This document shows, piece by piece, positions 46,128-62,267 of a stretch of 64,000 bases of DNA (within the stretch, counting starts at the first letter, position 1; each line of letters starts with the position of its first letter). The stretch is from Clostridium sp. UBA701 (lineage in GTDB: Bacteria; Bacillota; Clostridia; Clostridiales; Clostridiaceae): assembly GCA_002298125.1 (NCBI GenBank), contig DBMJ01000016.1, positions 1-64,000 on the forward strand, written 5' to 3'. The notes under the pieces were generated by a model. It worked only from the letters and a program-made list of their open reading frames with translations. It made no database searches and was not told where the DNA came from. The position numbers were made by a program, and so were the translations under genes.

Positions 46128-49067
46128 ATGGATAAGATAATATATTTTTTGCCACTGTATTCAGATAATAGGGAGCAGCTTATAGATAAGTGCTGCAAGC
46201 TTCAGAATAAAGGACAGAATTTTTTATACATACTGCCCTCAAGAGGGGCTTTGTCCTCAGTAAGACAGAGCTTTTTAGATAAAAGAGGGGGACTTATTAA
46301 CAGCTCCATTATAATGTTTGATGAGCTAGAGAGACTTTTATGCAGGGAAGTCCTAGCTGAGAGCAGGATAATAAATTCCAGGGTGAAGGAGGAGCTTCTT
46401 CAAGAGAGTGTTGAAAGAAATAGAGACAAGCTCTTATATTTTAAAAAACTAAGCAGCAGTATGGGCTTTATAAGAGAGCTGTCCTCTCTTATCTCTCGCA
46501 TGAAAAGGGAGTGCAAAACTTGGGAGGAGCTTATTATTCTCTCAAGCAGCTATGCCAATTCTCCTCTTAGTAAAAAGCTTCAGGACATAGCAATGCTTTA
46601 TAGGGCTTATGAGGATATAAAAAAAGCTAAGAGACTTTACGATAGCGAAGATATTTCTAAGTTTGCAATAGAGGAGGCAGCCGCAAATCCTATATGGCAA
46701 AGCATAGATACTATAGTTATAGATGGCTTTATAAACATAGACAGGGTAAATAAAGAGCTTATAAAAACCATAGCTAAGCAGGATAGGGTTAGTATATACA
46801 TAAACCTTCCTTATAGAAATGAGCTTCTAGAGCCTTTTTTAAATAGTGAAATTAATGAGGAGCTATTATCTTTAGGCTTTCAGCTTGTAACTAATGAAAC
46901 ATCTCAGCATAAGGCAGCAGCCGCCTTAAAGGAGCTTTCTCTGGGGCTCTATAGTGGAGAAAAATGCAACTCCTCCTGTGATGGTATAGTGCTTAGAAGC
47001 TTTCCCTGTGTGGAAGCTGAGGTGAGAGAGGCTGCGCGCTGCATAAAGAAGAGTCTTATGGAGGGTATGGAACCATCTCATATAGCTCTATATGTAAATA
47101 ATCTAGACCTATATGAAAAATCCATAACCTCAATATTTAGTGAATATAATATACCTCATAATTTAGGTCAGCGGGAAAAGCTTATAAATGTGCGTTTCGT
47201 AAGAGAGCTTATAACTGACTGCACCTGGCTCCAAGAGGAGGACACTATAGAAAAGCATCTCTTAAAGCTTGAGGATAGGCTTAGGGAGGAAAGAGAAAAA
47301 TTAAATAATGCTGCAGAAGCAATGCTTTTGGGAAATTTGACTAACACTGAAGCCATTTACCTAAGAGGGTATAAGGGGCTGCAAGGCATAATTGCTCTTT
47401 GGAGGAGTCAAAATTACCTACTGCAGCAAGGAAATAAAATTATTTCCCGGGAAAAGTTTGTAGAACAGATGAGGCAGTGGGTGGAGGAGGCTACAGTTAC
47501 CCTTAAAAAAGGCTTTAATACTGGAGTAAATATTTTAAATACAGATCTTGCTAAGGGAATATATTTTAAGGAAGTGTATATTCTTGGCCTAAATGAGGGA
47601 GAGGTGCCTAAGGCTGCTGAAAAGTCTGTGATATTTAATGGTGAAGAGAAGAGAAGACTTATGGAGGAGGGCTTTACGCTAAGAAGCGGAAGCTATGAAC
47701 AGTATAGAGAAAAGATAAGATTCAATCTAGCATTAGCTTCAGCTGAAGAAAGGCTCTACCTAAGCTGTAGAAATGCAGGAGAAAAGGGAGAGTTTGCAAT
47801 ACCCTCCTCTTTTATGGAGGAGGTATGCTATCTAACCTCAAGGTCAATTGTAAAATATTCTATGAAGGACAGGTTTTATAAGAATTTTTCAGAGCTAATG
47901 AGCAGGAGAGAGCTTGAAGAAAGCAGTCTAGTAAGCTACTGTGAAGCTCTTTATGAGGGCAGTATTACTGTAGAGGATCTAAGCTGTGGACTTTCAAGCC
48001 TATGCTCAAAGGGAGACATCTCCTCCACTCTTGTGGAATATCACAGGGAGTATGAGGAGGACTTTGACAGCTATGAGGGAATGGTGGGAGGAGCTTTTCT
48101 ACCTCAGGTGAGCAGCTTTTTCACCTATAGCGGCAGCAGCTTCAACGGCTATTTTCAATGTCCCTTTAGATATATGCTGGACAATATTTTTAAGCTACAG
48201 GAGTTTGAAGAAGAGGAGGAGGAGTTCTCCGCCATAGAGCTTGGACAACTATACCATAGGGTACTTGCAGCCTATTACAAAGAGGCAGACTATTGGCATA
48301 GTGTAAATGAGAAGCTCCTAAGTGAAAAATATGATGAGGAATACAGCAAGCTAAGACCCTTAGAGCTGCCAAAGCTTGTACTTGATACCTTAAGGGAAAA
48401 ATATTATAAAATCCTTAAGGACTTTATAGCTGCAGACCTAACTAGGCTTTCGGGCTATGAAAAGCTTACAGGAAGGGTACTAAGACCCTATAGGCTTGAG
48501 TGGTCTCTTCAAAATTATGACTTTTTAGGCATTCCCTTAAAAGGTATAGTGGATAGAGTGGATTTAGAATATGAGAAGGTAGAGGGAGGTTTAAAGCCTA
48601 CAGGAGCTTATGTCATCTATGATTATAAGAGGAAGTCGAGCTCCTCCTCCCCTAAAAATCTCAAGGATATAGTGTCAGGCAGGGATTGTCAGCTTCCCAT
48701 TTACTACTACCTGGCAGAAGAGCAGCTTAAAAACATTCTTAAGCTAGAGAATATAAGGTGCATGGGGCTTTTATATATGTATGTGGAAAATTTGAATAAG
48801 ACTGCCCCCAAGGCTTCAGGGATACTTTTAAATGAAGATAAAAAGGCCTTAGGCTATTCAAGAAGTGAAGGGATAAGTACACCAGCCTTTAAGGTAGTAG
48901 TGCAGCAGGTTCAGGATTTGGTTAAAGAGGCTCTTACCAAAATTAAAAGCGGAAGCTTTAACTATAAGCCATACTGTTATCACAAAGAGAGCAGCTTTGC
49001 CTATCCATGCAGATATGGAAATCTATGCCGCTATAGCAAAAATAAAATACGAAGGGGAGGGATTTAA
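46128..49067 (+). CDS. rexB: helicase-nuclease subunit B, RexB/AddB type (inactive helicase-like N-terminus, C-terminal RecB-type nuclease with Fe-S Cys staple)
   Basis: 979 aa; N-terminus LYILPSRGALSS resembles RexB (no Walker A); nuclease motif GIVDRVD..YVIYDYK; Cys pattern C(FQCPF)...YCYHKESSFAYPCRYGNLC. Confidence 0.8.
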   Translation: MDKIIYFLPLYSDNREQLIDKCCKLQNKGQNFLYILPSRGALSSVRQSFLDKRGGLINSSIIMFDELERLLCREVLAESRIINSRVKEELLQESVERNRDKLLYFKKLSSSMGFIRELSSLISRMKRECKTWEELIILSSSYANSPLSKKLQDIAMLYRAYEDIKKAKRLYDSEDISKFAIEEAAANPIWQSIDTIVIDGFINIDRVNKELIKTIAKQDRVSIYINLPYRNELLEPFLNSEINEELLSLGFQLVTNETSQHKAAAALKELSLGLYSGEKCNSSCDGIVLRSFPCVEAEVREAARCIKKSLMEGMEPSHIALYVNNLDLYEKSITSIFSEYNIPHNLGQREKLINVRFVRELITDCTWLQEEDTIEKHLLKLEDRLREEREKLNNAAEAMLLGNLTNTEAIYLRGYKGLQGIIALWRSQNYLLQQGNKIISREKFVEQMRQWVEEATVTLKKGFNTGVNILNTDLAKGIYFKEVYILGLNEGEVPKAAEKSVIFNGEEKRRLMEEGFTLRSGSYEQYREKIRFNLALASAEERLYLSCRNAGEKGEFAIPSSFMEEVCYLTSRSIVKYSMKDRFYKNFSELMSRRELEESSLVSYCEALYEGSITVEDLSCGLSSLCSKGDISSTLVEYHREYEEDFDSYEGMVGGAFLPQVSSFFTYSGSSFNGYFQCPFRYMLDNIFKLQEFEEEEEEFSAIELGQLYHRVLAAYYKEADYWHSVNEKLLSEKYDEEYSKLRPLELPKLVLDTLREKYYKILKDFIAADLTRLSGYEKLTGRVLRPYRLEWSLQNYDFLGIPLKGIVDRVDLEYEKVEGGLKPTGAYVIYDYKRKSSSSSPKNLKDIVSGRDCQLPIYYYLAEEQLKNILKLENIRCMGLLYMYVENLNKTAPKASGILLNEDKKALGYSRSEGISTPAFKVVVQQVQDLVKEALTKIKSGSFNYKPYCYHKESSFAYPCRYGNLCRYSKNKIRRGGI

Positions 49068-49068
49068 T

Positions 49069-52000
49069 ATGGCCTTTCCATTAAATGATGAACAGCTTCA
49101 GGCACTAAATATAGAAGAAAACATTTCACTATCAGCAGGAGCAGGTTCAGGGAAAACCAGGGTGCTTACAGAGAGATATATAAAGCTTCTAGAGGAGGAC
49201 AGTGAGGCTGATATTCTAAACATAGTGGCCATAACCTTCACCAATAAGGCTGCCCTAGAGATGAAGGACAGGGTGAGAAAGGCTATCCTCGTAAAGCTTG
49301 AGGAGTCTAAGAGTGAGGAGAGAAAGCTTTGGCAGCAAAGACTAGATGCGCTTAGTGAAGCACATATTAATACCATCCACGGGTTCTGTGGAGAAATAAT
49401 AAGAGAGCAGGCAGAAGAGCTAAACATAAGCCCAAGCTACTCTATTATAGATGCTGTAGAAAAGGAGCTGCTGCTTAGAGAAATCTTCACTAAGGTGGTA
49501 GCGGAAAGTCTTATTAAGGAGGACTTTAAAGAGGCTGTGGCAGAAATGGTGGAGCTCTATGGAGGAGAGTACCTTCAAAGGAAGGGCAGCTGTAATATTT
49601 ATAAAGATCTTCATAGGCTTCGGGAAAAGCTTTTAGAGAGAGGTCAGCTTAACAAAGAGCTTTTAAAAGCAGTTCAGCCTGAAAGCATGGAGCATTTTGT
49701 AATTTATATTCTGCTTAAGGTAGAGGAGCGCTATACAAAGAGCAAGAGAGAAAAAGACCTAATGGACTTTAATGATATGGAGCTTTTGTGTTATTCTGCT
49801 ATGCAGATAAAGGACATTAAAGAATACTATAAAAATAGATATAAAAGATTTCTAGTAGATGAATTTCAGGATACCAATGAACTTCAAAAGAAGATATTAT
49901 TTTCCTTTATTGAGGATGAGGATGGAATGCCTATGGATAAACGCCTCTTTGTAGTAGGAGATGTAAAGCAGTCCATATACCGCTTCCGTGGAGCAGATAT
50001 GCAGGTGTTTAATAGGGTAAGGGCAGAGCTTCCTGAAAACAGCAGAAAAAGTCTTCATATCTGCTACAGATGCCACCCCTCTATTGTAAAGGGAGTAAAC
50101 CAAATATTTAAAAAGCTTATGGCAGGCTATGAAGAACTTCAATCTGAAAGCGTGGAAGAGGATAAAAGAATTACCCTGCTCACCTATGAGGAGGAAGCAG
50201 AGGAAAAAGCAGATATCTACAGTGGCATAAAGGAGCTATATAAAACAGAGGATGAAGAGCATATGGAGGAGCTTAAGCTCAAGCTTAAGACCTTTTTAGA
50301 GGATATTAAAAATACAAAGCCCACAGAAGCTAAGGAAGGAGAGGCAGTGTTAAAGGCTGTCTATCATCTTAGAAATTGCGGCTTAGCCTATAGAGATATG
50401 GCGGTGCTTGTACGAAGCCGCTCCTCCCTGGCTGTACTGGAGGAGACTTTTATCAAGTATAAAATACCTTACTGTATCATAGGAGGAAAGGGCTTTTACA
50501 ATAAACAGGAGGTAATAGATATATTAAATCTATATAAGCTATCCATAGGGGATACTATTTCTAACGCAGAGCTTATTAGTGTGCTTAGAAGCCCCTTGTT
50601 TTCCATATCTGATGCAGCCCTTCTAAGAGGCAGGGTAGAGGCCATAGAACAGAAGGATATGGAGTTTTTAGAGGCTTTGGATTTAGCCTCGGAAACCCTT
50701 GAAGAAGAGAAGGAAAAGATTAATGCTGCCATAGGGGTCATTAGAGATTTACGCAGGGAGAGTGCAAATTGCAGTACTGTGCAGCTTCTAAAGTATATCT
50801 ATGATAAGACAGGAGTATGGAATAGATATATCTCACTAGAGCAGGGACTTCAGAAATACAGAAATCTAGAACAGCTATTACAGTGTGCAGAGGAATTTGA
50901 TAATAGGAAGCTGTTTTCACCTCAGGAGTTTATGGAATATATGACTCTTATGGCGGAGTACAGCAAGGAAGATGGAGAAGCTGCCCTAGACACAGAGGAT
51001 TCAGAGGCAATTAAGGTAATGACCATTCATGCCTCAAAGGGGTTGGAGTTTAAGGGAGTTATAATGCCCTCTCTAAACAAGAATTTACTGTATAATATAA
51101 ACAATGGGAAAAACAATTTTCTATACCAGGAGGATAATATAATAGCCTTTGACCGTTCAGCTAAGCAGGATGAAGCTTCTGACTTTCAGACTGGCAAGGC
51201 TCAAGAGGTTGAAAAGGAACTGCAGGAAGCAGTAAGAGTTTTTTATGTGGCTGTAACTCGTGCCATAGAACAGGTGGTGCTCATAGCACAGAGAGATGAA
51301 AAGTTGGAGGAGAAGCTTCAAAATGAAGCCTCCCTTAAGCCTGAGGACATCTATGGAAGCTACTATGCACAGCTTCTTTATGCCATTAATAGTGCTGGGG
51401 ATATTCCTGGTTTTCAAAGCCTAAGCATAGATGAGGTAGAGCTTAGGGAAGAAGCAGCTAAGGAGTACTATTTGCCTCAGGAGGATATTATAGTGCCAGA
51501 AGGAGTTGATTATAACTGTGAGGTGGTGCCACGTATTTTTTCCTCTGCCAGCAGCTATATGAGCTATAAACGCTGCCCTCTGGAGTATTATCTTAGTCGT
51601 GAATTGGCCTTTGCCCTGGACTTTTTAGAGGACAACAATGGTGAAGAGGAAAAGGAAGCTATAGAGGAGAGAGAACAGTCTTATGAGGGACTTACGGCAA
51701 TTGAGAAGGGACACATTATCCACAGTGTGTTAGAGCAGCTTGCAGTTAAGCCTGAATTAAGGGAGGAGGAGCTTCAGGAGTTTATTATAAGAGCTTCAGA
51801 GGAGGAGCTTGGTTATGAAAGCTATAATGAAGATATAGCCTCTGAAATAAAGCCCTATATTGATAGCTTTGTGAAGCTTGAAAAAAGCAGCAGGTTTAGT
51901 GCATTTACTCCCCTTTCAATCTTGTGTGAGGCTCAGTATACCTTTGCTCCACTTGAGGATAGGAAGCTAATATTAACTGGTGCCATAGATCGCCTTAGGC

Positions 52001-52326
52001 TTTATGAAATGGATGGAAAACTTGTGGCGGTTATTACGGATTATAAGAGTAACAACCTAAGAGATAGAGAGGAAGCAGAAATCACTGCTAAAAAATATCT
52101 TCCACAGATGCTCTTATACGGCCTTGCAGTTAAGACACTGTTTTCACATAAGGGAAGAAGTGTGGATGAGATTATTCTGCAGCTTTATTTCTTGAAGCCT
52201 GGAGAGGAAATTAAATTGAATTTTGATGAAAAAGAAGCACTGGTGCTGGTTGATGAGATGGATAGGATATTTAAGTCCATGGCGTTAAATAAGATAGAGG
52301 ATTTACAAGTGACAAGTGACAAGTGA
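49069..52326 (+). CDS. rexA: helicase-nuclease subunit A, RexA/AddA type (UvrD-like SF1 helicase + C-terminal PD-(D/E)xK nuclease)
   Basis: Start at ATG 49069 with GGGGAGGG RBS (ORF track extends to 48997); Walker A AGAGSGKTRVL, UvrD motifs, C-terminal GAIDRL..ITDYK nuclease motif; the stop codon lies inside the heptamer repeat. Confidence 0.85.
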   Translation: MAFPLNDEQLQALNIEENISLSAGAGSGKTRVLTERYIKLLEEDSEADILNIVAITFTNKAALEMKDRVRKAILVKLEESKSEERKLWQQRLDALSEAHINTIHGFCGEIIREQAEELNISPSYSIIDAVEKELLLREIFTKVVAESLIKEDFKEAVAEMVELYGGEYLQRKGSCNIYKDLHRLREKLLERGQLNKELLKAVQPESMEHFVIYILLKVEERYTKSKREKDLMDFNDMELLCYSAMQIKDIKEYYKNRYKRFLVDEFQDTNELQKKILFSFIEDEDGMPMDKRLFVVGDVKQSIYRFRGADMQVFNRVRAELPENSRKSLHICYRCHPSIVKGVNQIFKKLMAGYEELQSESVEEDKRITLLTYEEEAEEKADIYSGIKELYKTEDEEHMEELKLKLKTFLEDIKNTKPTEAKEGEAVLKAVYHLRNCGLAYRDMAVLVRSRSSLAVLEETFIKYKIPYCIIGGKGFYNKQEVIDILNLYKLSIGDTISNAELISVLRSPLFSISDAALLRGRVEAIEQKDMEFLEALDLASETLEEEKEKINAAIGVIRDLRRESANCSTVQLLKYIYDKTGVWNRYISLEQGLQKYRNLEQLLQCAEEFDNRKLFSPQEFMEYMTLMAEYSKEDGEAALDTEDSEAIKVMTIHASKGLEFKGVIMPSLNKNLLYNINNGKNNFLYQEDNIIAFDRSAKQDEASDFQTGKAQEVEKELQEAVRVFYVAVTRAIEQVVLIAQRDEKLEEKLQNEASLKPEDIYGSYYAQLLYAINSAGDIPGFQSLSIDEVELREEAAKEYYLPQEDIIVPEGVDYNCEVVPRIFSSASSYMSYKRCPLEYYLSRELAFALDFLEDNNGEEEKEAIEEREQSYEGLTAIEKGHIIHSVLEQLAVKPELREEELQEFIIRASEEELGYESYNEDIASEIKPYIDSFVKLEKSSRFSAFTPLSILCEAQYTFAPLEDRKLILTGAIDRLRLYEMDGKLVAVITDYKSNNLRDREEAEITAKKYLPQMLLYGLAVKTLFSHKGRSVDEIILQLYFLKPGEEIKLNFDEKEALVLVDEMDRIFKSMALNKIEDLQVTSDK

Positions 52327-52838
52327 CAAGTGGCAAGTGGCAAGTGGCAAGTGACAAGTGGCAAGTGACAAGGGAGAAGGGACAAGTTACAAGTGACAAG
52401 TTAAAAGTGAAGAAGTGACAAGTTACAAGTGAAGAGGGAAGAGGGACAAGGGACAAGTGAGAAAGTGACAAGTGGGAAAGTGACAAGTGACAAGTTACAA
52501 GTGAAGAAGTGAAGAAGTGGAGAAGTGGCAAGTGACAAGTGACAAGTGAAGAGTGAAGAGTGAAGAAGTAAGAAGTTATGAAGTGACAAGTGACAAGTGA
52601 CAAGTGACAAGTGACAAGTTATGAAGTGACAAGTGACAAGTGACAAGTGGCAAGTGACAAGTGAGAAAGTGACAAGTGACAAGTGACAAGTGGCAAGTTG
52701 CAAGTTGCAAGTTAAAAGTGAAGAAGTGAAGAAGTGAAGAAGTGAAGAAGTAAGAAGTAAGAGGTAAGAAGGAAGAGGGAAAAGTTAAGAGGGAAAAGTT
52801 AAGAGGGAAAAGTTAATAGTTAAAAGTGACAAGTTGTG
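52305..52838. repeat. ~530-bp microsatellite of heptamer/octamer units (GACAAGT, GGCAAGT, GAAGAAGT, GAAGAGT, GGGAAAAGTTAAGAG x3), ~75 units
   Basis: seen directly: long runs gacaagtgacaagtgacaagt..., gaagaagtgaagaagt...; plus strand is almost devoid of C; minus strand open in all frames. Confidence 0.9.
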
Positions 52839-53153
52839 GGTTGTGCAAATAATTTTGTGTATTCTATTTCTATTGGCAAATAATTAGGATATCAAATTGT
52901 TTGACCGTAATGTTAAATTTTGTCGATAAATCTTTAGCTGCATCATTAATATTATAGTAGATTATTCTTACTGCTTAAGTTAATATACAACATCTTTACC
53001 ATTAACAGGATAGGCCAATGCTGAGGAGCAACCTGAGCGGTTACTGGAGTTCTCTGAATAGGAACGGATGGTCTTTTGATCATCCTTTTCTCGTTCCTGG
53101 GAGAACTAAAGCGATAAACCTCTGGGGTTTGGGGACAGAGTCCCCAAGTTATG

Positions 53154-53472
53154 CCTACTTTCTTAAGATATCTTCAAATAGGATATTGAGTTGACTTACT
53201 ACAAGATCCCAGTTTGAACACACTCTACTCCACTTGTTGCTAATCTTTTCAGTAGATAGATATAGCATCTTCATAAGACTCTCGTCATTAGGGAATATAA
53301 GCTTTGTCTTAGTAACCTTTCTAAATTGGCTATTAAGGCCTTCTATAGCATTTGTGGTATTATCCCGATATCGGTATAGTTATTTTTTTGGCATTAGAGG
53401 TATACATAATCGTACGAATATATTCACAATGGAGAATACTACCATAGAATTCTTGAGGAAAAGGTTTAGTAT
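53154..53472 (-). pseudogene. IS256-family transposase, 3'-terminal remnant (~105 codons, one frameshift)
   Basis: Minus-strand translation gives EYIRTIMYTSNAKK / YRYRDNTTNAIEGLNSQFRKVTKTKLIFPNDESLMKMLYLSTEKISNKWSRVCSNWDLVVSQLNILFEDILRK*, matching the conserved IS256 C-terminus (IYTTNAIE.LN..R...K....FP...L.K.LYL.....KW....W) as recalled; no N-terminal DDE region, no inverted repeats. Confidence 0.7.
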
Positions 53473-53482
53473 AAAGTAAAGG

Positions 53483-53592
53483 GCCTGTTTAGAGGATTTG
53501 CTCGCTAAACAGGCTCTGTTCTTTAACAGGCCATGCTCTCTAAACAAGCTCTGCACTCTAAACAAGCTCTGCTCTCTAAACAGGCACTGCTA
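53483..53592. repeat. 3' UTR element: three perfect + two degenerate 18-bp direct repeats (CTCTAAACAAGCTCTGCW) and a 10-bp-stem hairpin (GCCTGTTTAG/CTAAACAGGC)
   Basis: seen directly at 53538-53591 (3x18 bp) and 53483-53514 (hairpin); lies immediately 3' of the minus-strand small-protein gene stop, so the hairpin probably acts as its terminator. Confidence 0.6.
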
Positions 53593-53990
53593 ATACAAGG
53601 GGGCTTTGCGGTTTAATTCCATTTGATTTTTTCTGTGCTCTTGTTTTTCCTTGGTGCTTTCAAGGGTTAATTCGTCCATTCGGGAGGCATTGTGATCTAG
53701 GTAGTTGTTAGCGTAGGTGTAATTTTTCAGCAGGTTATCATTTTCATCCACCTGCTCATGGATACCATAGGCGATGATGTTTTTTAGGTTTGCAATTTCA
53801 GCTTTTCTCTCCTCTTGAATTTTTAAGGTATGCTTTACGTCATCAAGAGTAGATTTTGCCAGATTTTCTTCTAGATGTTTTTCTGTACGAGTATATTTTT
53901 CCACTACATCGATAAGCTGCTCAATTCTTCTAGCATTGGATTTTTTATGCTCCTTATAAGAATCAGGCTGCTCTTTGTCACCATTCATAT
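53590..53990 (-). CDS. small highly charged coiled-coil protein (possible spore-associated/Tlp-like small protein)
   Basis: Start chosen at ATG 53990 (MNGDKEQPDSYKEHKK...), with AGGAGG RBS 8 nt upstream; the ORF-track extension to 54099 is unsupported; Lys/Glu-rich, no family confidently recognised. Confidence 0.45.
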
Positions 53991-54055
53991 AAATCCTCCT
54001 TTGACCCACTGTACTGCTTAGATATATGAAAAAAAGTGAAGAATGAAAATAAATA

Positions 54056-54100
54056 GAGGGCTCACTTATATTTTTAGCATAAGGAGCCCTAAAATACATG
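54056..54100 (-). terminator. probable nagA terminator hairpin (AGGGCTC...GAGCCCT)
   Basis: 7-bp stem with A/T flanks downstream of nagA and of the 15-bp repeats. Confidence 0.4.
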
Positions 54101-54120
54101 GGAAATATTGTTTTTTCAAA

Positions 54121-54255
54121 TTATAAATTATAGCTTTATAAACTATATCTTTATAAACTGTTGCTTTACAAACTGTTGCTTTACAAACTATAGCTTTATA
54201 AGCTGTTGCTTTATAAACTATAACTTTATAAGCTTTCCATTTACAATAACAAGCT
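54121..54255. repeat. nine tandem copies of a 15-bp AT-rich unit (TTATAAACTATAGCT consensus)
   Basis: seen directly: ttataaattatagct ttataaactatatct ttataaactgttgct ttacaaactgttgct ttacaaactatagct ttataagctgttgct ttataaactataact ttataagctttccat ttacaataacaagct; overlaps last ~12 codons of nagA. Confidence 0.85.
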
Positions 54256-55351
54256 TAATGTTTATATCCTCATCAAAGAGCACTAAGTCTGCATCATAAC
54301 CCTCTGCTATCAGTCCCTTTTGGTTTTCTACTCCACAGTGTACTGCAGCATTGTAGGTAGCCATTTTAACCACCTCATAAAGAGGATAATTGGTATTTTT
54401 GTATACGTTGGAGATAGCTTTATCTAAAGTGAGAATGGAGCCTGCCAGTGAACCAGTAGCAATTCTTGCAGCACCTTCCGTTACAAATACGTCTTGACCG
54501 CCAAGGGAGTATTTGCCCTCACCTAAGGTACATGCCATCATGGCATCTGTAACCAATATGGTCTTATCAAGGCCTTTTTGCTTAAAGGCTACTCTAAGAG
54601 ATGGGTATGCTATATGAATGCCGTCTGCAATGGTCTCTGTGGTTATATCACTATCAAATATTGCACCTACCACTCCAGGCTTTCTATGATGAAGAGGAGT
54701 CATGGCATTAAATAAATGAGTGGAGTGGCTAACTCCCTTTGCTATTGCAGAAGAGGCTTCTTCGTAGGTAGCATTTGTATGTCCCATGGATACCACTACA
54801 CCAAGGGAATGGGCATATTCAATGAGTTCAAGTGCACCCTCTACCTCTGGAGCTAGGGTTATACAGCTAATATCCTCTATATGCTCCTTGGCAATATAGT
54901 CAAAGGTCTCCTTTGAGGGCTTTTCTACGTATTTAGGGTTTTGTGCACCTATCATATTGGGACTAATAAAGGGGCCTTCAAGGTGAAGTCCCAATATTTG
55001 AGCTCCTTCTGTACCCACCTTCTTAGCTTCTGCTGCTGCTTCTACAGAATTTTTAATATCCTCTAAGGCTACCGTCATAGTAGTTGGAAGAAAGGAAGTG
55101 GTACCGTGCTTTACAATGGCCTTTGAAATTTCATTTAATGCTTCATAGGTACCATCCATGGTATCATATCCTGCGGCTCCATGAATATGCACATCTATAA
55201 AGCCAGGAGAGAGATAATTACCTTGGCCGTCAATTATTTCTTCACCATATAAGTCTGTGGGATTAAGCTCTACTATCTTTCCATTTCTTACTCTAAGAGC
55301 TCCTTCTTCTATTCCATCCTTTAAAATCAGTTTACAATTAGTTATTATCAT
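54218..55351 (-). CDS. nagA: N-acetylglucosamine-6-phosphate deacetylase
   Basis: 377 aa; GFIDVHIHGAAG metal-binding motif and overall NagA pattern. Confidence 0.85.
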   Translation of the reverse strand: MIITNCKLILKDGIEEGALRVRNGKIVELNPTDLYGEEIIDGQGNYLSPGFIDVHIHGAAGYDTMDGTYEALNEISKAIVKHGTTSFLPTTMTVALEDIKNSVEAAAEAKKVGTEGAQILGLHLEGPFISPNMIGAQNPKYVEKPSKETFDYIAKEHIEDISCITLAPEVEGALELIEYAHSLGVVVSMGHTNATYEEASSAIAKGVSHSTHLFNAMTPLHHRKPGVVGAIFDSDITTETIADGIHIAYPSLRVAFKQKGLDKTILVTDAMMACTLGEGKYSLGGQDVFVTEGAARIATGSLAGSILTLDKAISNVYKNTNYPLYEVVKMATYNAAVHCGVENQKGLIAEGYDADLVLFDEDINIKLVIVNGKLIKL

Positions 55352-55523
55352 AATATGTGGGAAAAACCCGCACCTCCTTTAATTAAACCTGATGTCTAAT
55401 TAAATTATACTCCTATTTTTATATAGATGTCTAGACCAGTTGTTTACAATAAAAATGCAAAGTGTTATAATTATTTTAAAATAATATGTAATTTGCACCG
55501 GTATATTGCTGGGAGGGAAGATT

Positions 55524-56246
55524 ATGATTGATAAATACAGTGCTATTCCCGTGTATTTTCAAATTAAAGAGGATATAAAAAATAAAATTCTTCAAGGTCA
55601 TTGGGGTCCTGGACAATGTATAGATAGTGAAAGAGAAATTTCAGAGCATTACGGTGTCAGCCGAATGACTGTAAGACAGGCTATAGGTGAGCTGGTGAAG
55701 GAAGGAATACTTCTTCGAGAAAAGGGAAGAGGAACCTTTGTATGTGAAACTAGGATAACTCAGCACAACATCATGAGCTTTACGGAAATGACTGAGAAAA
55801 GCGGGCTTACGGCAGAAACAGTACTGCTTGATGTGTGCGCCTTAGAAGGGGACGAGGAGCTAGCAGAGCTCTTTGGAACAAAAGAGCTTCTTAGGATTCA
55901 GAGACTAAGGAAGGCAGATGATACAGTCATAGGCTTTGAGCAGGTGTATATACCAGAAAAAACACTAGGAGATACTAAGAAAGAGGAACTACAAGGCTCA
56001 CTCTTTAAGCTTTTAGAGGAAAGAGGAAGATTAATTGCAACCTCCCATGCCTTTATTAAGGCTGTGGAAACTCCAGCCTCTCTTTTGGAGATTTTTAGTG
56101 CTGAGGAAGTAAGTGCACTGCTTATGACCAACAGCTCCTATTATGATGAGGGCGGAGAGCTTATTTTTGTAGAGGAATCCTACTATAATGGTGAAAAATT
56201 TACCTTGGAGGTTAATATAGCAAAAAAGCAGGGAATGATACTTTAA
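55524..56246 (+). CDS. GntR-family transcriptional regulator with UTRA effector domain (NagR/YvoA-like)
   Basis: HTH SEREISEHYGVSRMTVRQAIGELVKEG; ATG 55524 with GGGAGGG RBS (the ORF track starts at TTG 55506). Confidence 0.8.
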   Translation: MIDKYSAIPVYFQIKEDIKNKILQGHWGPGQCIDSEREISEHYGVSRMTVRQAIGELVKEGILLREKGRGTFVCETRITQHNIMSFTEMTEKSGLTAETVLLDVCALEGDEELAELFGTKELLRIQRLRKADDTVIGFEQVYIPEKTLGDTKKEELQGSLFKLLEERGRLIATSHAFIKAVETPASLLEIFSAEEVSALLMTNSSYYDEGGELIFVEESYYNGEKFTLEVNIAKKQGMIL

Positions 56247-56328
56247 GCATAAGAGGTTAAATTAAAATTTTTATATAAAAAGAGGTATAGACATCTATAA
56301 TACTAGAGTGAAATAGGAGGAAAAAATC

Positions 56329-57099
56329 ATGAAATTGATAATTACGAAGAACTACGAAGAGATGAGCTTATATGGAGCAAAGCAAATAGTGGAGCTGGTA
56401 TCAAAAAAGCCGGATTGTATATTAGGACTTGCCACTGGCAGCACTCCTGAAGGACTATATGCAAAGGTTATAGAGGCCTATAAAAGAGGAGAGGTGGATT
56501 TTTCAAAGGTCAGCAGCTTTAATCTGGATGAATATGTGGGCCTTAGCGGAGAGCATCCTCAAAGCTATAGGTATTTTATGAATGATAAGCTTTTTAATCA
56601 TGTAAATATAGATAAGAGTAAGACTCGTGTGCCTAACGGAAAGACAGACAATGCAGAAGAGGAATGTTTAAGCTATGATAGAAGCATAACAGAAGCAGGG
56701 GGCATAGACCTTCAGCTCCTAGGCATAGGTACTAATGGACACATAGGCTTTAACGAGCCCTCAGACTCCTTAAACTTATGCACTCATGTAACCAATCTAG
56801 CACTAGATACTATAAAGGCTAATTCTAGATTCTTCTCAAGTGAGGCGGAGGTTCCAAAGCAGGCTATCACTATGGGACTTGGAAGCATAATGCAGGCCAA
56901 GAGCATATTGCTTTTAGCTAGCGGAGTAAAAAAGGCTCCAATTATTTCAAAGCTTGTAGCTGGAAGTATCAGCACCCAGGTACCTGCCTCAGTGCTGCAG
57001 CTTCATAAGGATGTAACTGTAATAGTAGATACTGATGCAGCCTCAGAGCTAAACCTTGAGGAAATCCCGGAAAATGTAGAGATAATAAGGGTTAAATAA
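56329..57099 (+). CDS. nagB: glucosamine-6-phosphate deaminase
   Basis: 256 aa; LGLATGSTP and GIGTNGHIGFNEP motifs. Confidence 0.9.
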   Translation: MKLIITKNYEEMSLYGAKQIVELVSKKPDCILGLATGSTPEGLYAKVIEAYKRGEVDFSKVSSFNLDEYVGLSGEHPQSYRYFMNDKLFNHVNIDKSKTRVPNGKTDNAEEECLSYDRSITEAGGIDLQLLGIGTNGHIGFNEPSDSLNLCTHVTNLALDTIKANSRFFSSEAEVPKQAITMGLGSIMQAKSILLLASGVKKAPIISKLVAGSISTQVPASVLQLHKDVTVIVDTDAASELNLEEIPENVEIIRVK

Positions 57100-57599
57100 A
57101 AGTAGGATGCCTTTTCAATTTATCCCAACAATTAAACCATTGACACCTTCTGCCTTATATATCTTTAGCCAACTTTAATTAGCTTCTCCGTATGTTTAAA
57201 CAACACTATTTTCGTATTTTAAGGATGTGAGGTGCAATATCAATTTCTAGAAGATGTTGTATAATGCCCCAAAATAATGCTCAATAAATAGTAAGAATAT
57301 TATGAATAGTAATTGTAAATATTTGTCTTATACGTTATTATTAGCATAAGAGAATGCGAAGGAGTTGATTAAATGTAACTCATTTTGCAAGGAAAACAGG
57401 AACGAATACAATTGAATCAAAATGGGGAAGTTATGAGGCAGTCAAAAACAATTGTATAGGAACGTTTGATGCATTTCTTACTGCTGATTATGGAAAGCCT
57501 TTAGCATATTTCAAATTTCAATAATATCATGTAATAGAGTTTCAAAATTAAAAGGATGAATTTTTATATTTACGAAAATTATTATGAGGAGGTTAGTAT

Positions 57600-57758
57600 A
57601 TGATAAAAAAGTTAAATTTGAAAGTTGTTCTGATTACCTTTTCTATTATAACGTTAGGTATATTTGCAGGCTTCAAATATACTCAAACCTTAGCCTCAAG
57701 AAATATTGATAATGAAATGAAGAGTTTAGTTAATAAAAAAAGGTACAGGCATGGATAA
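57600..57758 (+). CDS. N-terminal signal-peptide segment (52 aa) of a gene interrupted at a poly-A(7) tract
   Basis: GAGGAGG RBS 7 nt upstream; MIKKLNLKVVLITFSIITLGIFAGFK signal/TM; frame ends 5 codons after A7 at 57735-57741. Confidence 0.35.
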   Translation: MIKKLNLKVVLITFSIITLGIFAGFKYTQTLASRNIDNEMKSLVNKKRYRHG

Positions 57759-57787
57759 CCTATTATGAAAGTAATGATAGAATATTA

Positions 57788-58348
57788 ATGTCTAGTAATC
57801 CATATGCCTATTTGCAAAATGAAAAATTTGAAGAGATTAAAAATTTAGGGCCAGAGTACATGCCATATATTTTAAAGGAAATAGGTGAGAATCCAGCTGC
57901 AGTGTTTGCATTATGGGAAATAAAAGATATTTCTAAAGCTTATAACTTACCCAAATGGGACAGTGATGACCAGTGTGTTAGCATTTGGAATCAATATGTG
58001 GAGAATTTTCCAGAGGAGTTTAACAAATTAAAAAAAGAGTTGTATTCTGAAACTGATACCGAAAAAATCAAATTAAAGTCTCAAGAAATAAAGGATTTAG
58101 GATATTTAGCTTTACCATTTATTGTAGAAGAAAACAATGAAAGGATGGATACAATAGCGAAACAATTATTTAGAGATAATATTAATCAAGTATCATATTC
58201 TGAATCTAACATGAATAGCTCTGAAAGTGAAAATACAACTATAGAGGAAAAAATAGATTCTAAACTTAAAAATTACAAAGCATTGGTGGAACTCAATAAA
58301 AATGTAAGCAGTTTAAATAAATTCAAAATAAATATAAAGTATAAGTAA
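57788..58348 (+). CDS. hypothetical protein (C-terminal segment; +1 frame relative to 57600 ORF)
   Basis: 186 aa ORF; its frame is open back to the stop at 57734-57736, i.e. into the A-tract, so one extra A would fuse it to the signal-peptide ORF. Confidence 0.5.
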   Translation: MSSNPYAYLQNEKFEEIKNLGPEYMPYILKEIGENPAAVFALWEIKDISKAYNLPKWDSDDQCVSIWNQYVENFPEEFNKLKKELYSETDTEKIKLKSQEIKDLGYLALPFIVEENNERMDTIAKQLFRDNINQVSYSESNMNSSESENTTIEEKIDSKLKNYKALVELNKNVSSLNKFKINIKYK

Positions 58349-58452: not shown

Positions 58453-61008
58453 TTACATTAAATGAGTTTTTATTACTTCCTCCTTGGAGGCTTGTTTTTC
58501 AATATTGTTTACTACCTTTACAGAGTCATTAGTGCTGCCAAGGAGAATTCCACCCACCAGCCTTCTGTTTTTTAAGAATAGCTTTTTATATTGAAGCTTT
58601 CCAGCGGTCTTATAGCCAAGCTCCTCAAAGCTTTCATCCTTTGCACACACATCTCCTGCAGAGAACAGATTGATATTTAGTGCATTAAACATTATGGAGG
58701 AAACAAAATCTGCAAATTCCTTTTCATCTCCTACGGCCGCTGCTCCTGCTACCTTGCCCATCTCTGTAGCTGCAGGCCAGTTTCCAAATACCCTTCCATT
58801 ATATTCAGCCACATCTCCGCAGGCATATATATTAGGTATATTGGTCTCCATTTTCTTATTGACTATTATTCCCCTATTTACTGCTATTCCTGCATTTTCT
58901 GCCAGGGCTTTATTAGGACGAATGCCCACAGATAAAAGCACCATATCTCCCTGAAGTACCTTTCCGCTCTTTAATCTTACTCCGCTTACAGAGTCTTCTC
59001 CAAGGATTTCTTCCACAGCCTCGTTAAGGTATATGTCTACACCACAGCTGTCTATGAAAGGCTTTGCCAGAGAAGAACCCTCATCATCAAGCTGCATAGG
59101 CAAAAGTCTAGGAGCAAGCTCCACTACAGAAACCTTAATACCAAGCTTTTTCATCTCCCAAGCTGCCTCTAAACCCAGCACTCCACCGCCAATTATTACT
59201 GCACTCTTGCTTTCCTCTAGTGCAGTCTTTATTTTAGTTGCATCCTCAAAGGTTCTAAGTACAAATACATTTTTGTGCTCTGCACCCTTTATAGGTGGAA
59301 CAAAGGCACTGCTGCCATTTGCCAAAATAAGCTTGTCATAGGATATCTCCATACCATTATTAAGCACTAAAAGCTTATTTTCTGGTTTTAGCTCTTTTAC
59401 AACAACTCCAAGGGTAAGAGTAATATTATTTTCACTATACCAGTTTTTGTTTACTAGATAGAAATCTCTTTCTGGAATTTCTGAGCTTAAATAATCAGAA
59501 AGCTGAGGCTTGTAGTAGGTAAGCTCACTCTCAGAGGAGATAATCTCTATATCTGCTGCAGAGTTTCTCTTTCTTATGGCATCTGCTGCATAAAAGCCTG
59601 CAGCACCATTACCTATTATTATAAACTTTTCTTTTTTGTCACTGTGGAAGCTTATTATTTCCTCAGATACCTCTACAAATTGGTCTGAGCCTGCACCACA
59701 TGCTGGACAAACCTCTGGAGGAACCTCTCCTTCTAATATAAGCCCGCATACTATGCATTTCCACTTCTTTTTAGGCTTTTTATCTGCCTTTTCTGAGCTC
59801 TTATTTAGTTTTAATAGCAGCTCCTCCCCAAAGCCTTTCCCAAAGCTTACACACTGCTTAAGCTCCTCATAAGAAGGCTTAAAGTTTATTTTTAAACCCG
59901 GTATTAGCTTCATTCTAAGCTCTTTTAGCCTATTAATAATATTATCCACAGCTTCTCCACTCCAGCCATAGGAACCAAAGGCTGAGCAAAGCTTATCACC
60001 ATGGACTATAGGGCTTAAGCTTATGAGTAAATCCATCACAGGTAAAAGAGCATCACTGTTTATGGTAGGAGAACCAAAAATAATGCCGTCAGCATTTAAC
60101 ATATCCCCTAGAATATCCTCTTTTTTCTCTTTAATAATATCGTAGAGGTGAATTTCAAAGGGGTGGACTTCTTTTAAGCCCTCTGCTATCTTCATGGCCA
60201 TGCTCTCTGTATAGCCATAGGCAGATACATAGGGGATTACTATTTTGGGTTCAGGGTTCTTTTCTAAGGGTTCACTCCACTGTCTGTAAAGCTCTACTAT
60301 CTTCCAGGGGTCCTGTCTTAAAATAGGTCCGTGACCAGGGCAGATTATTTCTATATCAAGGTTTTTTATCTTATCGTAAGCCCTTAATAGGTGAGGCTTA
60401 AAGGGAGATATTATCATGTCATAGTAATATCTAAGGGCAGTGTTATAATCCTCAATATTTGGAATGAGGTCATTATACATCTCCTCAAAGCAGTAGTGAC
60501 TGCCGAAGGAATCACAGGTTAATAGAAGCTTATCCTCCTCCACATAGGTGTAGATGGAATCTGGCCAATGTAAAAAGGGTGCATTGATAAACTTTAAGGT
60601 CTTATCACCAAGGGATAAGGTATCCCCATCTTTTACAGTAATGGCCTCAAAGCTTCTGTTGGCAATGGCTTTTAGAAATTGTATTGCCATGGCAGATCCC
60701 ACTACCTTAGCCTTTGGAGCTAGTTCTAGAAGCTTTGCCACGGAACCTGCATGGTCAGGCTCTGTATGGTCTACTACAATGTAGTCTATACTGCTTATAT
60801 CAATATCAAGGGATTGAAGCCTTTCTAGATATTCAGGGAAAAATTTTTCCTTTACGGTTTCAAAGATAGCAGTTTTTTGCGAACCCTTTACTACATAAGA
60901 ATTGTAGGTAGTACCAAAGGGTGTGTACATGATTATATCAAACACTCTCAGGTTAAAGTCCTGGGCCCCGACCCAATAAATATCCTTTTTAATCTCTAAG
61001 GATTTCAT
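58453..61008 (-). CDS. multidomain flavodiiron protein: metallo-beta-lactamase-like diiron + flavodoxin + rubredoxin + NAD(P)H:rubredoxin oxidoreductase (class-F-type FDP fusion)
   Basis: H.E.DH diiron motif ([11 protein letters not shown]), flavodoxin segment, rubredoxin CxxC...CPxC (CIVCG...CPACG), two Rossmann GxGxxG motifs; start set at third ATG (MKSLEIKK) with GGAGGAG RBS. Confidence 0.85.
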
Positions 61009-61310
61009 CATATCTCCTCCATACATATGTTAATAAATTATTAATAAATAACAATTGTCCGTTATTTTTATTATAATACAGCTTAGCTCATACTTCAATT
61101 CTTTAGTAGTATTACTATTAGCTCATAATTCAATTATTTAGTAGTATTACTATTAGCGCATAATTCAAATATTTATTAGTATTACTATATGTAAAATCAT
61201 CTTACCTTATATTTCCCGTTATAAAAGTAAAAAAATTCATACTACTTCACAATTTTAGTGTTATAATTTTACCATAATGCATAATTAAAACCCGCGGGGA
61301 GGAATTAACT

Positions 61311-62267
61311 ATGAACGTAGAGAAATTTGTGGACTTTAGAGAAAGACTTACGGAAAACATCGGGGAAGTAATAGTAGGAAAGAAAGATAGGATTGACAAG
61401 ATAATTGTAGCCTTTATATGTTCTGGTCATGTACTATTAGAGGATGTACCAGGTCTTGGCAAAACAAAGCTGGCAAAGGCTCTATCAAAATCCTTAAACT
61501 GCAGCTTCAAAAGAATTCAATTTACCCCAGATTTATTGCCTTCAGATCTTACAGGAATATATTTTTACAACCAAAAGACCTCAGAATTTGAATTTAGAAA
61601 GGGGCCCCTTTTAAGTCAGCTTGTACTTGCAGATGAAATAAACAGAGCAACCCCAAGAACTCAATCTGCACTACTAGAATGTATGGAAGAGAGACAAATA
61701 ACTGTAGAGGGAAATACCGTTATTCTAGAAAGCCCATTTTTCGTTATTGCAACACAAAACCCAGTGGAGCAGTTTGGAACCTTCCCACTGCCAGAGGCTC
61801 AGCTGGATAGATTTTTCATGAGATTATCCATGGGCTATCCAGATTATCAAGAAGAAAAGACTATGATGAAGAGATTCAAGGAAGAGGATCCACTAGATTC
61901 ACTGCAGGCTATTATGTCCATGGAAGATATACACTATGTTCAAAACAATTATCATAAGGTACATTTAAGCGAAGAGGTAATGGAATACATTCTAAATATA
62001 GTATTAAGCACAAGGGATCATAGAGAGCTAGAGCTTGGGGCAAGTCCAAGAGCAAGTCTTAATCTCATGAGGGGAAGTCAGGCCTTGGCAGCAATAAAGG
62101 GACGAGATTACGTACTGCCAGAGGATGTTAGAGAGCTTGCTGTGCCAATCCTATCCCATAGATTAATTTTAAAGAGCTCCATGAATTCTACCATAAATGG
62201 AGGAGAAGAAATAGTAGAAGAAATTCTGCAGAAGGTGGAGGCTCCACTAGAAGCCATCAGGGAGTGA
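61311..62267 (+). CDS. MoxR-family AAA+ ATPase
   Basis: 318 aa; Walker A PGLGKT, Walker B LLADEINR; typical MoxR length. Confidence 0.9.
   Translation: MNVEKFVDFRERLTENIGEVIVGKKDRIDKIIVAFICSGHVLLEDVPGLGKTKLAKALSKSLNCSFKRIQFTPDLLPSDLTGIYFYNQKTSEFEFRKGPLLSQLVLADEINRATPRTQSALLECMEERQITVEGNTVILESPFFVIATQNPVEQFGTFPLPEAQLDRFFMRLSMGYPDYQEEKTMMKRFKEEDPLDSLQAIMSMEDIHYVQNNYHKVHLSEEVMEYILNIVLSTRDHRELELGASPRASLNLMRGSQALAAIKGRDYVLPEDVRELAVPILSHRLILKSSMNSTINGGEEIVEEILQKVEAPLEAIRE

Follow-up and report, generated by a model that had tools for sequence, protein, structure and literature searches.

Variable tandem-repeat loci are well known in the Clostridia and are used there for MLVA typing (PMC3191483). 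Such VNTR/MLVA loci, described for instance in Clostridium difficile (PMC3191483), are built of short, imperfect units placed head to tail; they are lineage-specific, and close strains differ by whole units while the flanking sequences are conserved. The 15-bp array analysed here, which lies at the 3' end of a nagA gene, resembles them in each of these respects. It departs from them in that it starts within the final codons of a gene, whose stop codon it reuses, and in being known from assemblies of an uncharacterised Clostridia species that has no close sequenced relative.

Other described systems share part of this architecture. The iterons of plasmids and phages and the partition centromeres (parC, tubC-type) also consist of direct repeats of 10-20 bp with partly palindromic cores. 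The nagA array, however, is located in a chromosomal sugar-catabolism locus, in a 3' UTR ahead of a terminator, with no gene of the Rep, ParR or TubR type nearby, and neither the sequence nor the number of its units is conserved. Phase-variable contingency loci are comparable in being prone to slippage and in varying in copy number from strain to strain, but the unit of the nagA array measures 15 bp and its copies follow a stop codon instead of separating the -35 and -10 hexamers of an identifiable promoter. The last term of comparison is provided by the dre operators of NagR/DasR, whose consensus is palindromic (..TGGTCTAGACCA..) and which have in common with the array a regulon neighbourhood and a central TATAG-like element. 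An array of NagR/DasR operators was nevertheless rejected as a candidate, because the unit TTRTAAAGCWAYAGT has no GGT...ACC arms and a dre-like site, ATGTCTAGACCAGT, sits instead at 55428-55441.

Anatomy of the array at the end of nagA

The window, i.e. the whole 64-kb stretch of DNA that was analysed, carries the array and its immediate surroundings on the minus strand:

54218..55351, minus strand: nagA, N-acetylglucosamine-6-phosphate deacetylase (ORF; Pfam Amidohydro_1; NCBIfam TIGR00221)
54120..54246, minus strand: 15-bp array (TRF, minus-strand read, unit table, self-match and shuffles)
54246-54232, minus strand: unit U0, TTGTAAATGGAAAGC, plain nagA codons (I V N G K), 10/15 match
54231-54217, minus strand: unit U1, TTATAAAGTTATAGT, last nagA codons and TAG stop
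54216-54127, minus strand: units U2 to U7, 3' of the nagA stop
54126-54120, minus strand: unit U8, partial (7 nt), 3' of the nagA stop
54057..54090, minus strand: hairpin of 13 pairs with one bulge and a 7-nt loop (RNA fold -16.6 kcal/mol, z -3.6; alignment)

The identity of nagA, proposed by the initial annotation, is well founded: the TIGR00221 equivalog was matched with 366 bits for a cutoff of 226. Nine 15-bp units had been described at 54121-54255, and a head-to-tail array is indeed recovered at these positions both by TRF and by the scoring of individual 15-mers. TRF delimits it to 54121-54231 (period 15, 7.4 copies, 83% matches, score 138), super-periods of 30 and 45 bp scoring equally well. 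When compared with TTATAAACTATAGCT, the nine plus-strand 15-mers from 54121 to 54255 reach 14, 14, 13, 12, 14, 12, 14, 10 and 9 matches out of 15; the last two, at 10/15 and 9/15, had been fairly called degenerate beside the other seven (12-14/15). These head-to-tail copies are well beyond chance, as established by TRF, by self-match and by shuffling. Computed over 120 nt, the period-15 self-match reaches its maximum of 0.77 at 54112; across the window it averages 0.28 (sd 0.05), and outside the array it does not exceed 0.525, which makes this array the strongest period-15 signal of the window. In 10,000 local shuffles, the maximum self-match was 0.47, against 0.70 observed.

Read along the gene, the array runs from 54246 to 54120 in the register TTRTAAAG-CWAYAG-T. 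The octamer TTRTAAAG is conserved while the rest of the unit drifts. A palindromic core, TTTATAAA, had been attributed to each unit; this does not hold, since the perfect core is present in only three of the nine (at 54135, 54150 and 54210), the remaining ones having TTTACAAA or TTTATAAG at that place. The plus-strand ORF 54108..54299 (63 aa, FINY-type pentapeptide repeats), which is antisense to nagA, starts with TTG and has no RBS, was rejected as a gene: it is a by-product of the repeat, liable to be miscalled as a gene.

The TAG stop of nagA, at 54220-54218, is situated inside the array. Translated in the nagA frame, the successive units read LIKL, FIKQQ, LIKL, FVKQQ, FVKQQ, FIKI, FIKL and FII, the four-residue peptides and FII each being followed by a stop. 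These peptides are drifting copies of the four terminal nagA codons and of the stop. NagA itself ends in VIVNGKLIKL and has the same length as its closest homologues: NagA homologues stop 2-5 residues past an xGK motif, and the closest stop four past it (e.g. VIINGKVFKR). It follows that U0 and U1 are ancestral coding sequence and that NagA has been neither lengthened nor truncated. The initial statement that about 12 codons of nagA are covered is correct if one also counts the two degenerate units, which consist of conserved nagA coding sequence, and not otherwise; the well-matching unit takes in the last 4 codons and the stop.

The array is followed, after a spacer of 29 nt, by the hairpin 54090-54057 and, directly after it, by the U-rich run CUAUUUAUUUUCAUUCU. 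This hairpin, which a simple terminator scanner did not flag, is the probable intrinsic terminator of nagA. Since the array extends between the nagA stop and the hairpin, it belongs to the 3' untranslated region of nagA.

Alleles within the species, relatives and other copies

Exact matches to NagA of the window and to the small charged protein encoded downstream were found on public contigs. The allele of the window was recovered base for base on a contig of the Logan assembly of SRR5320859 (L001), identical over 2239/2239 nt, array included. Two alleles of other strains were obtained from SRR31637312 (L004) and SRR35580759 (L005), in which nagA is respectively 97.6% and 98.1% identical to the window at the nucleotide level. 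These three sources are Logan metagenome assemblies of short reads, built with k=31.

The comparison of copy number among strains, which the initial annotation had called for, gives three complete alleles with 8 (window and L001), 5 (L004) and 4 (L005) units after U0. Compared with the window, the array lacks exactly 45 bp in L004 and exactly 60 bp in L005, with breakpoints in register, and point substitutions distinguish the alleles besides length. One unit of L005, TTGTAAAGCTATAAT, looks like a hybrid that begins with TTGTAAAG, as do U4/U5 of the window, and finishes with CTATAAT, as does U7. In a fourth sample, DRR438471 (L016), U2 carries a substitution and the contig is interrupted within the array. 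The flanks, on the other hand, hardly change: L004 and L005 match the window at 98.5% over the 132 bp separating the array from the ATG of the small gene, and all three strains have the same hairpin, followed by a U-rich run that is one T shorter in L004 and L005. The distance from the stop to the hairpin amounts to about 127, 82 and 67 nt in the three complete alleles. As judged from these short-read assemblies, the locus thus combines whole-unit differences in copy number with conserved flanks, and the array, which changes by whole units, changes faster than any other part of a locus that is otherwise very conserved.

Short-read assemblies often give tandem repeats a wrong size, and one Logan contig ends within the array. 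It is nonetheless extremely improbable that the array, or its polymorphism, is an artefact of assembly. The window allele was reproduced by an independent assembler (SRR5320859), the array was found in four separate samples, and the alleles differ by substitutions and not by length alone. Moreover, no 31-mer occurs twice within any of the complete alleles, and the assembly of these alleles with k=31 is therefore unambiguous. The Logan alleles may still be collapsed versions of longer true alleles.

The same alleles bear on the idea that the array acts as a switch of the NagA C-terminus, in which the in-register loss of the stop-bearing unit would add pentapeptides of the FIKQQ type to the protein. 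The unit is exactly five codons long and the CAACAG-type units contain no in-frame stop, two points in favour of such a switch. This reading is very improbable, however: U1 and its stop are retained in all four observed alleles, and NagA has its normal length; an in-frame TAG or TAA is present in five of eight units, so that any extension would be short; and a frameshift is impossible.

At the loci examined outside the species, the array is missing. The nearest NagA proteins (L002 and L003) show 72% identity, and TRF detects no tandem repeat downstream of nagA in either case; in L002, where the sequence was read, a canonical terminator begins about 6 nt after the nagA stop. The relatives checked for the small gene (56-66% identity) lead to the same result: in L009 and L012, this gene occupies other contexts and its aligned upstream region contains no array, TRF finding none in L009. 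Since the relatives of nagA and those of the small gene (L002, L003, L009 and L012) are all devoid of it, the array is the conserved companion of neither gene.

The array has no other copy in the available sequence. A scan for further 15-mers had been proposed as a check of a binding-site function, and in the 64-kb window it returned no extra copy beyond chance: outside the array, 13 matches to the unit were found at 2-3 mismatches for 8.6 +/- 3.0 expected, none of them closer. The two-unit pattern GTTTRTAAAGCWAYAGTTTRTAAAGC was absent from the genomes of 185,579 species, a collection in which this species is missing; the small protein has no relative in that collection, which places the species outside the GTDB representatives. 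Among 241 million metagenome records, the same pattern was matched twice (L007 and L008), a relaxed pattern made of three TTTATAAAG motifs retrieved two viral contigs (L014 and L015), and the pattern of the invariant flank had no match in metagenome contigs. The four contigs contain short 15-bp arrays of their own with TTTATAAAG, at 660-745 in L007 (CGTTTATAAAGCAAT x5), about 1045-995 in L008, 8130-8168 in L014 and 6197-6260 in L015. On these metagenome, viral and giant-virus contigs, the arrays lie in AT-rich intergenic DNA with no common gene context, and they are judged to be coincidences among AT-rich repeats. Finally, a cmscan search of positions 50000-58000 against Rfam (E<=1) produced only a chance snoRNA match elsewhere, and none for the array.

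Candidate roles in protein binding and gene expression

The initial annotation had interpreted the array as an iterated binding site. A nucleoid-associated, AT-hook, sporulation-regulator or centromere/iteron-type protein would nucleate on the TTTATAAA repeats and thereby affect nagA or the small gene. The tandem direct repeats, their quasi-palindromic cores and the conserved TTRTAAAG are compatible with such a platform, as is the occurrence of intergenic 15-bp arrays with TTTATAAAG in the unrelated L007, L008, L014 and L015. The gene content of the locus, however, speaks against it. The neighbours of the array are nagA, a GntR/HutC regulator, nagB and a conserved hypothetical gene, and neither a Rep, ParR or TubR gene nor any other candidate for a cognate binder adjoins the repeats. 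The regulator next to nagA contains GntR and UTRA domains (Pfam), and its probable operator, unrelated to the array unit, is the following element:

55428..55441, no strand assigned: dre-like palindrome ATGTCTAGACCAGT (sequence read), in the divergent region between nagA and the GntR-HutC gene

From the dre consensus, we take ATGTCTAGACCAGT to be, probably, the operator of NagR; a possible dre half-site, ATGTCTAA, is also observed near 55392. The distribution of the repeat is equally unfavourable to a dedicated platform. Nothing else in the locus is as poorly conserved as the number and the sequence of the units, the palindrome is imperfect in most units, the relatives of both neighbouring genes do without the array, and the unit recurs neither in the window nor in the 185,579 genomes; the four outside arrays, which have no gene context in common, are few enough to be coincidental. 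The claim of an iterated binding-site array consequently finds no support in the locus, and this function is decidedly unlikely.

A second type of function would operate in cis on transcription or on the messenger. The array could tune the length, the stability or the termination of the nagA 3' UTR, or serve the small gene as an AT-rich activating region upstream of it or as a cryptic promoter, the number of copies setting the level of expression. This possibility involves two further elements:

53590..53988, minus strand: gene of a 132-aa charged protein (ORF; the exact protein is annotated as 132 aa in public sources)
54003-53995, minus strand: RBS AAAGGAGGA of the small gene, located with the ATG about 70 nt beyond the hairpin

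The small gene had been described as divergent. It is in fact transcribed from the same minus strand as nagA, immediately downstream of it, and the hairpin terminator stands between the array and the gene; the ATG (53988) is 132 bp away from the array, in agreement with the distance of about 130 bp initially given. Its product has 56 homologues across the Clostridia (Caldicoprobacterales, Tepidibacter, Defluviitaleaceae), with up to 66% identity, and matches no Pfam or NCBIfam family; it is a conserved Clostridia hypothetical protein of an unannotated family. Strains that differ by about 2% in nagA are 99.5% identical in the nucleotide sequence of this gene. The alignment of the upstream regions of its homologues revealed no convincing common promoter motif. 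In these relatives, only about 75-110 bp, with no array, separate the end or the terminator of the upstream gene from the start codon. Such short upstream regions suggest that, here too, the promoter of the small gene is probably downstream of the hairpin.

Several observations could be put forward for a role in cis. The array occupies the nagA 3' UTR, from the stop to the terminator, its copy number varies among strains, and its RNA folds into hairpins better than shuffled sequences (z -4.6). In addition, weak sigma-70-like pairs, TTGTAA-18-TATAGT and TTGAAA-17-TATTTT, occur within or just after it. The promoter-like matches are nevertheless at the level of chance (9 found for 8.2 +/- 3.0 expected), and a transcript starting in the array would meet the -16.6 kcal/mol hairpin and its U-rich tail before the small gene, whose promoter is probably located beyond them. 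The folding of the RNA follows from the unit itself, which combines TTTATAAA and CTATAG, both of them near-palindromes; treated as single-stranded DNA, the array folds unremarkably (z -0.8). The array also has no match in Rfam. A regulation in cis is therefore unlikely, and, on the sequence evidence, the array most likely has no regulatory role.

Origin of the array and neighbouring repeats

In view of these results, the array is likely to be a lineage-specific minisatellite, or VNTR, generated by slippage, seeded by the AT-rich 3' end of nagA and probably neutral. The seed would have been a direct repeat TTRTAAA already present with a spacing of 15 bp within the nagA 3' end (U0/U1). The AT-rich terminal codons and the stop (CTT ATA AAG YTA TAG) would then have been duplicated in tandem, and copies would be gained and lost, always in register, by slipped-strand mispairing or by unequal recombination. 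Translation would end at the first stop-bearing copy, and the later copies, sitting in the 3' UTR before the terminator hairpin, would for that reason be free to drift. The only effect of gaining or losing copies would be a longer or shorter 3' UTR, the stop and the hairpin being about 67 to 127 nt apart. The neutrality of the array is deduced from its lack of conservation and can only be presumed; the conserved TTRTAAAG octamer may reflect a sequence constraint, against such a neutral reading.

The initial annotation had also proposed that the array is a slippage-prone contingency element. The first half of this proposal agrees with the alleles, which have 8, 5 and 4 units at about 2% divergence, in-register indels of 45 and 60 bp and near-invariant flanks. 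The second half does not: no switch of the reading frame is possible, because the unit equals five codons and the variable copies follow the stop, and the hairpin precedes the core promoter region of the small gene. Nor do the copies occupy a site at which gaining or losing one would displace the reading frame or modify a -35/-10 spacing, the promoter-like hexamers being at the level of chance.

The minisatellite is accompanied by other repeats and by the trace of a mobile element:

52305-52835: heptamer array of about 530 bp, ACAAGTG x~58 grading into AAGTGAAG and GAAGAGG
53155-53375 (approximate), minus strand: C-terminal remnant of an IS256/Mutator-family transposase (Pfam PF00872, E 4.8e-9)
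53499-53591: 18-bp x5.2 array, directly 3' of the stop of the small gene
61083-61188: 35-bp x3.0 repeat (92% matches), in the divergent promoter region between ORFs 58453..61026 (minus strand) and 61311..62267 (plus strand)

The heptamer array starts in the last six codons of a UvrD/PD-(D/E)XK helicase-nuclease ORF (48997..52326, ending in DLQVTSDK) and its plus strand is strongly purine-rich (A 232, G 176, T 82, C 41). The units of the 18-bp array repeat the left arm of the terminator hairpin of the small gene (GCCTGTTTAG...CTAAACAGGC); in L004 and L005, this array has the same copy number and many substitutions, next to a nearly invariant small gene. The IS256/Mutator remnant lies between the heptamer array and the terminator of the small gene, and the Logan contig L001 ends at this remnant. 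In L004 and L005, the remnant is absent from this place and a similar heptamer array abuts the terminator of the small gene. Furthermore, an ENA metagenome contig (L006, 400-2446) contains a NagA fragment of the species cluster beside an IS110-family transposase, which suggests IS activity around nagA in another strain; this contig stops short of the array.

Since two further arrays are present at gene ends within the same 2 kb, repeat expansion looks like a local mutational habit. Such clustering points less to a dedicated signal than to gene ends being, locally or throughout the organism, prone to repeat expansion. It is quite improbable that the three gene-end arrays of these 2 kb stem from a particular mechanism, or serve a particular function, that recurs at the 3' ends of genes; template switching at termination zones, or a selected spacer or binding platform between stop and terminator, could be candidates. 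In that event, the nagA array would belong to a class, as one of its functional members, and would not be neutral junk.

As a probable minisatellite, the nagA array is of little importance for biology at large. For annotation, it illustrates that the 63-aa plus-strand ORF spanning it is spurious, and that arrays of this type break short-read assemblies. It also offers an example of a minisatellite arising from the terminal codons and the stop of a gene and growing into the 3' UTR while the protein is left untouched. For this uncharacterised Clostridia species, it constitutes a potential marker for strain typing.
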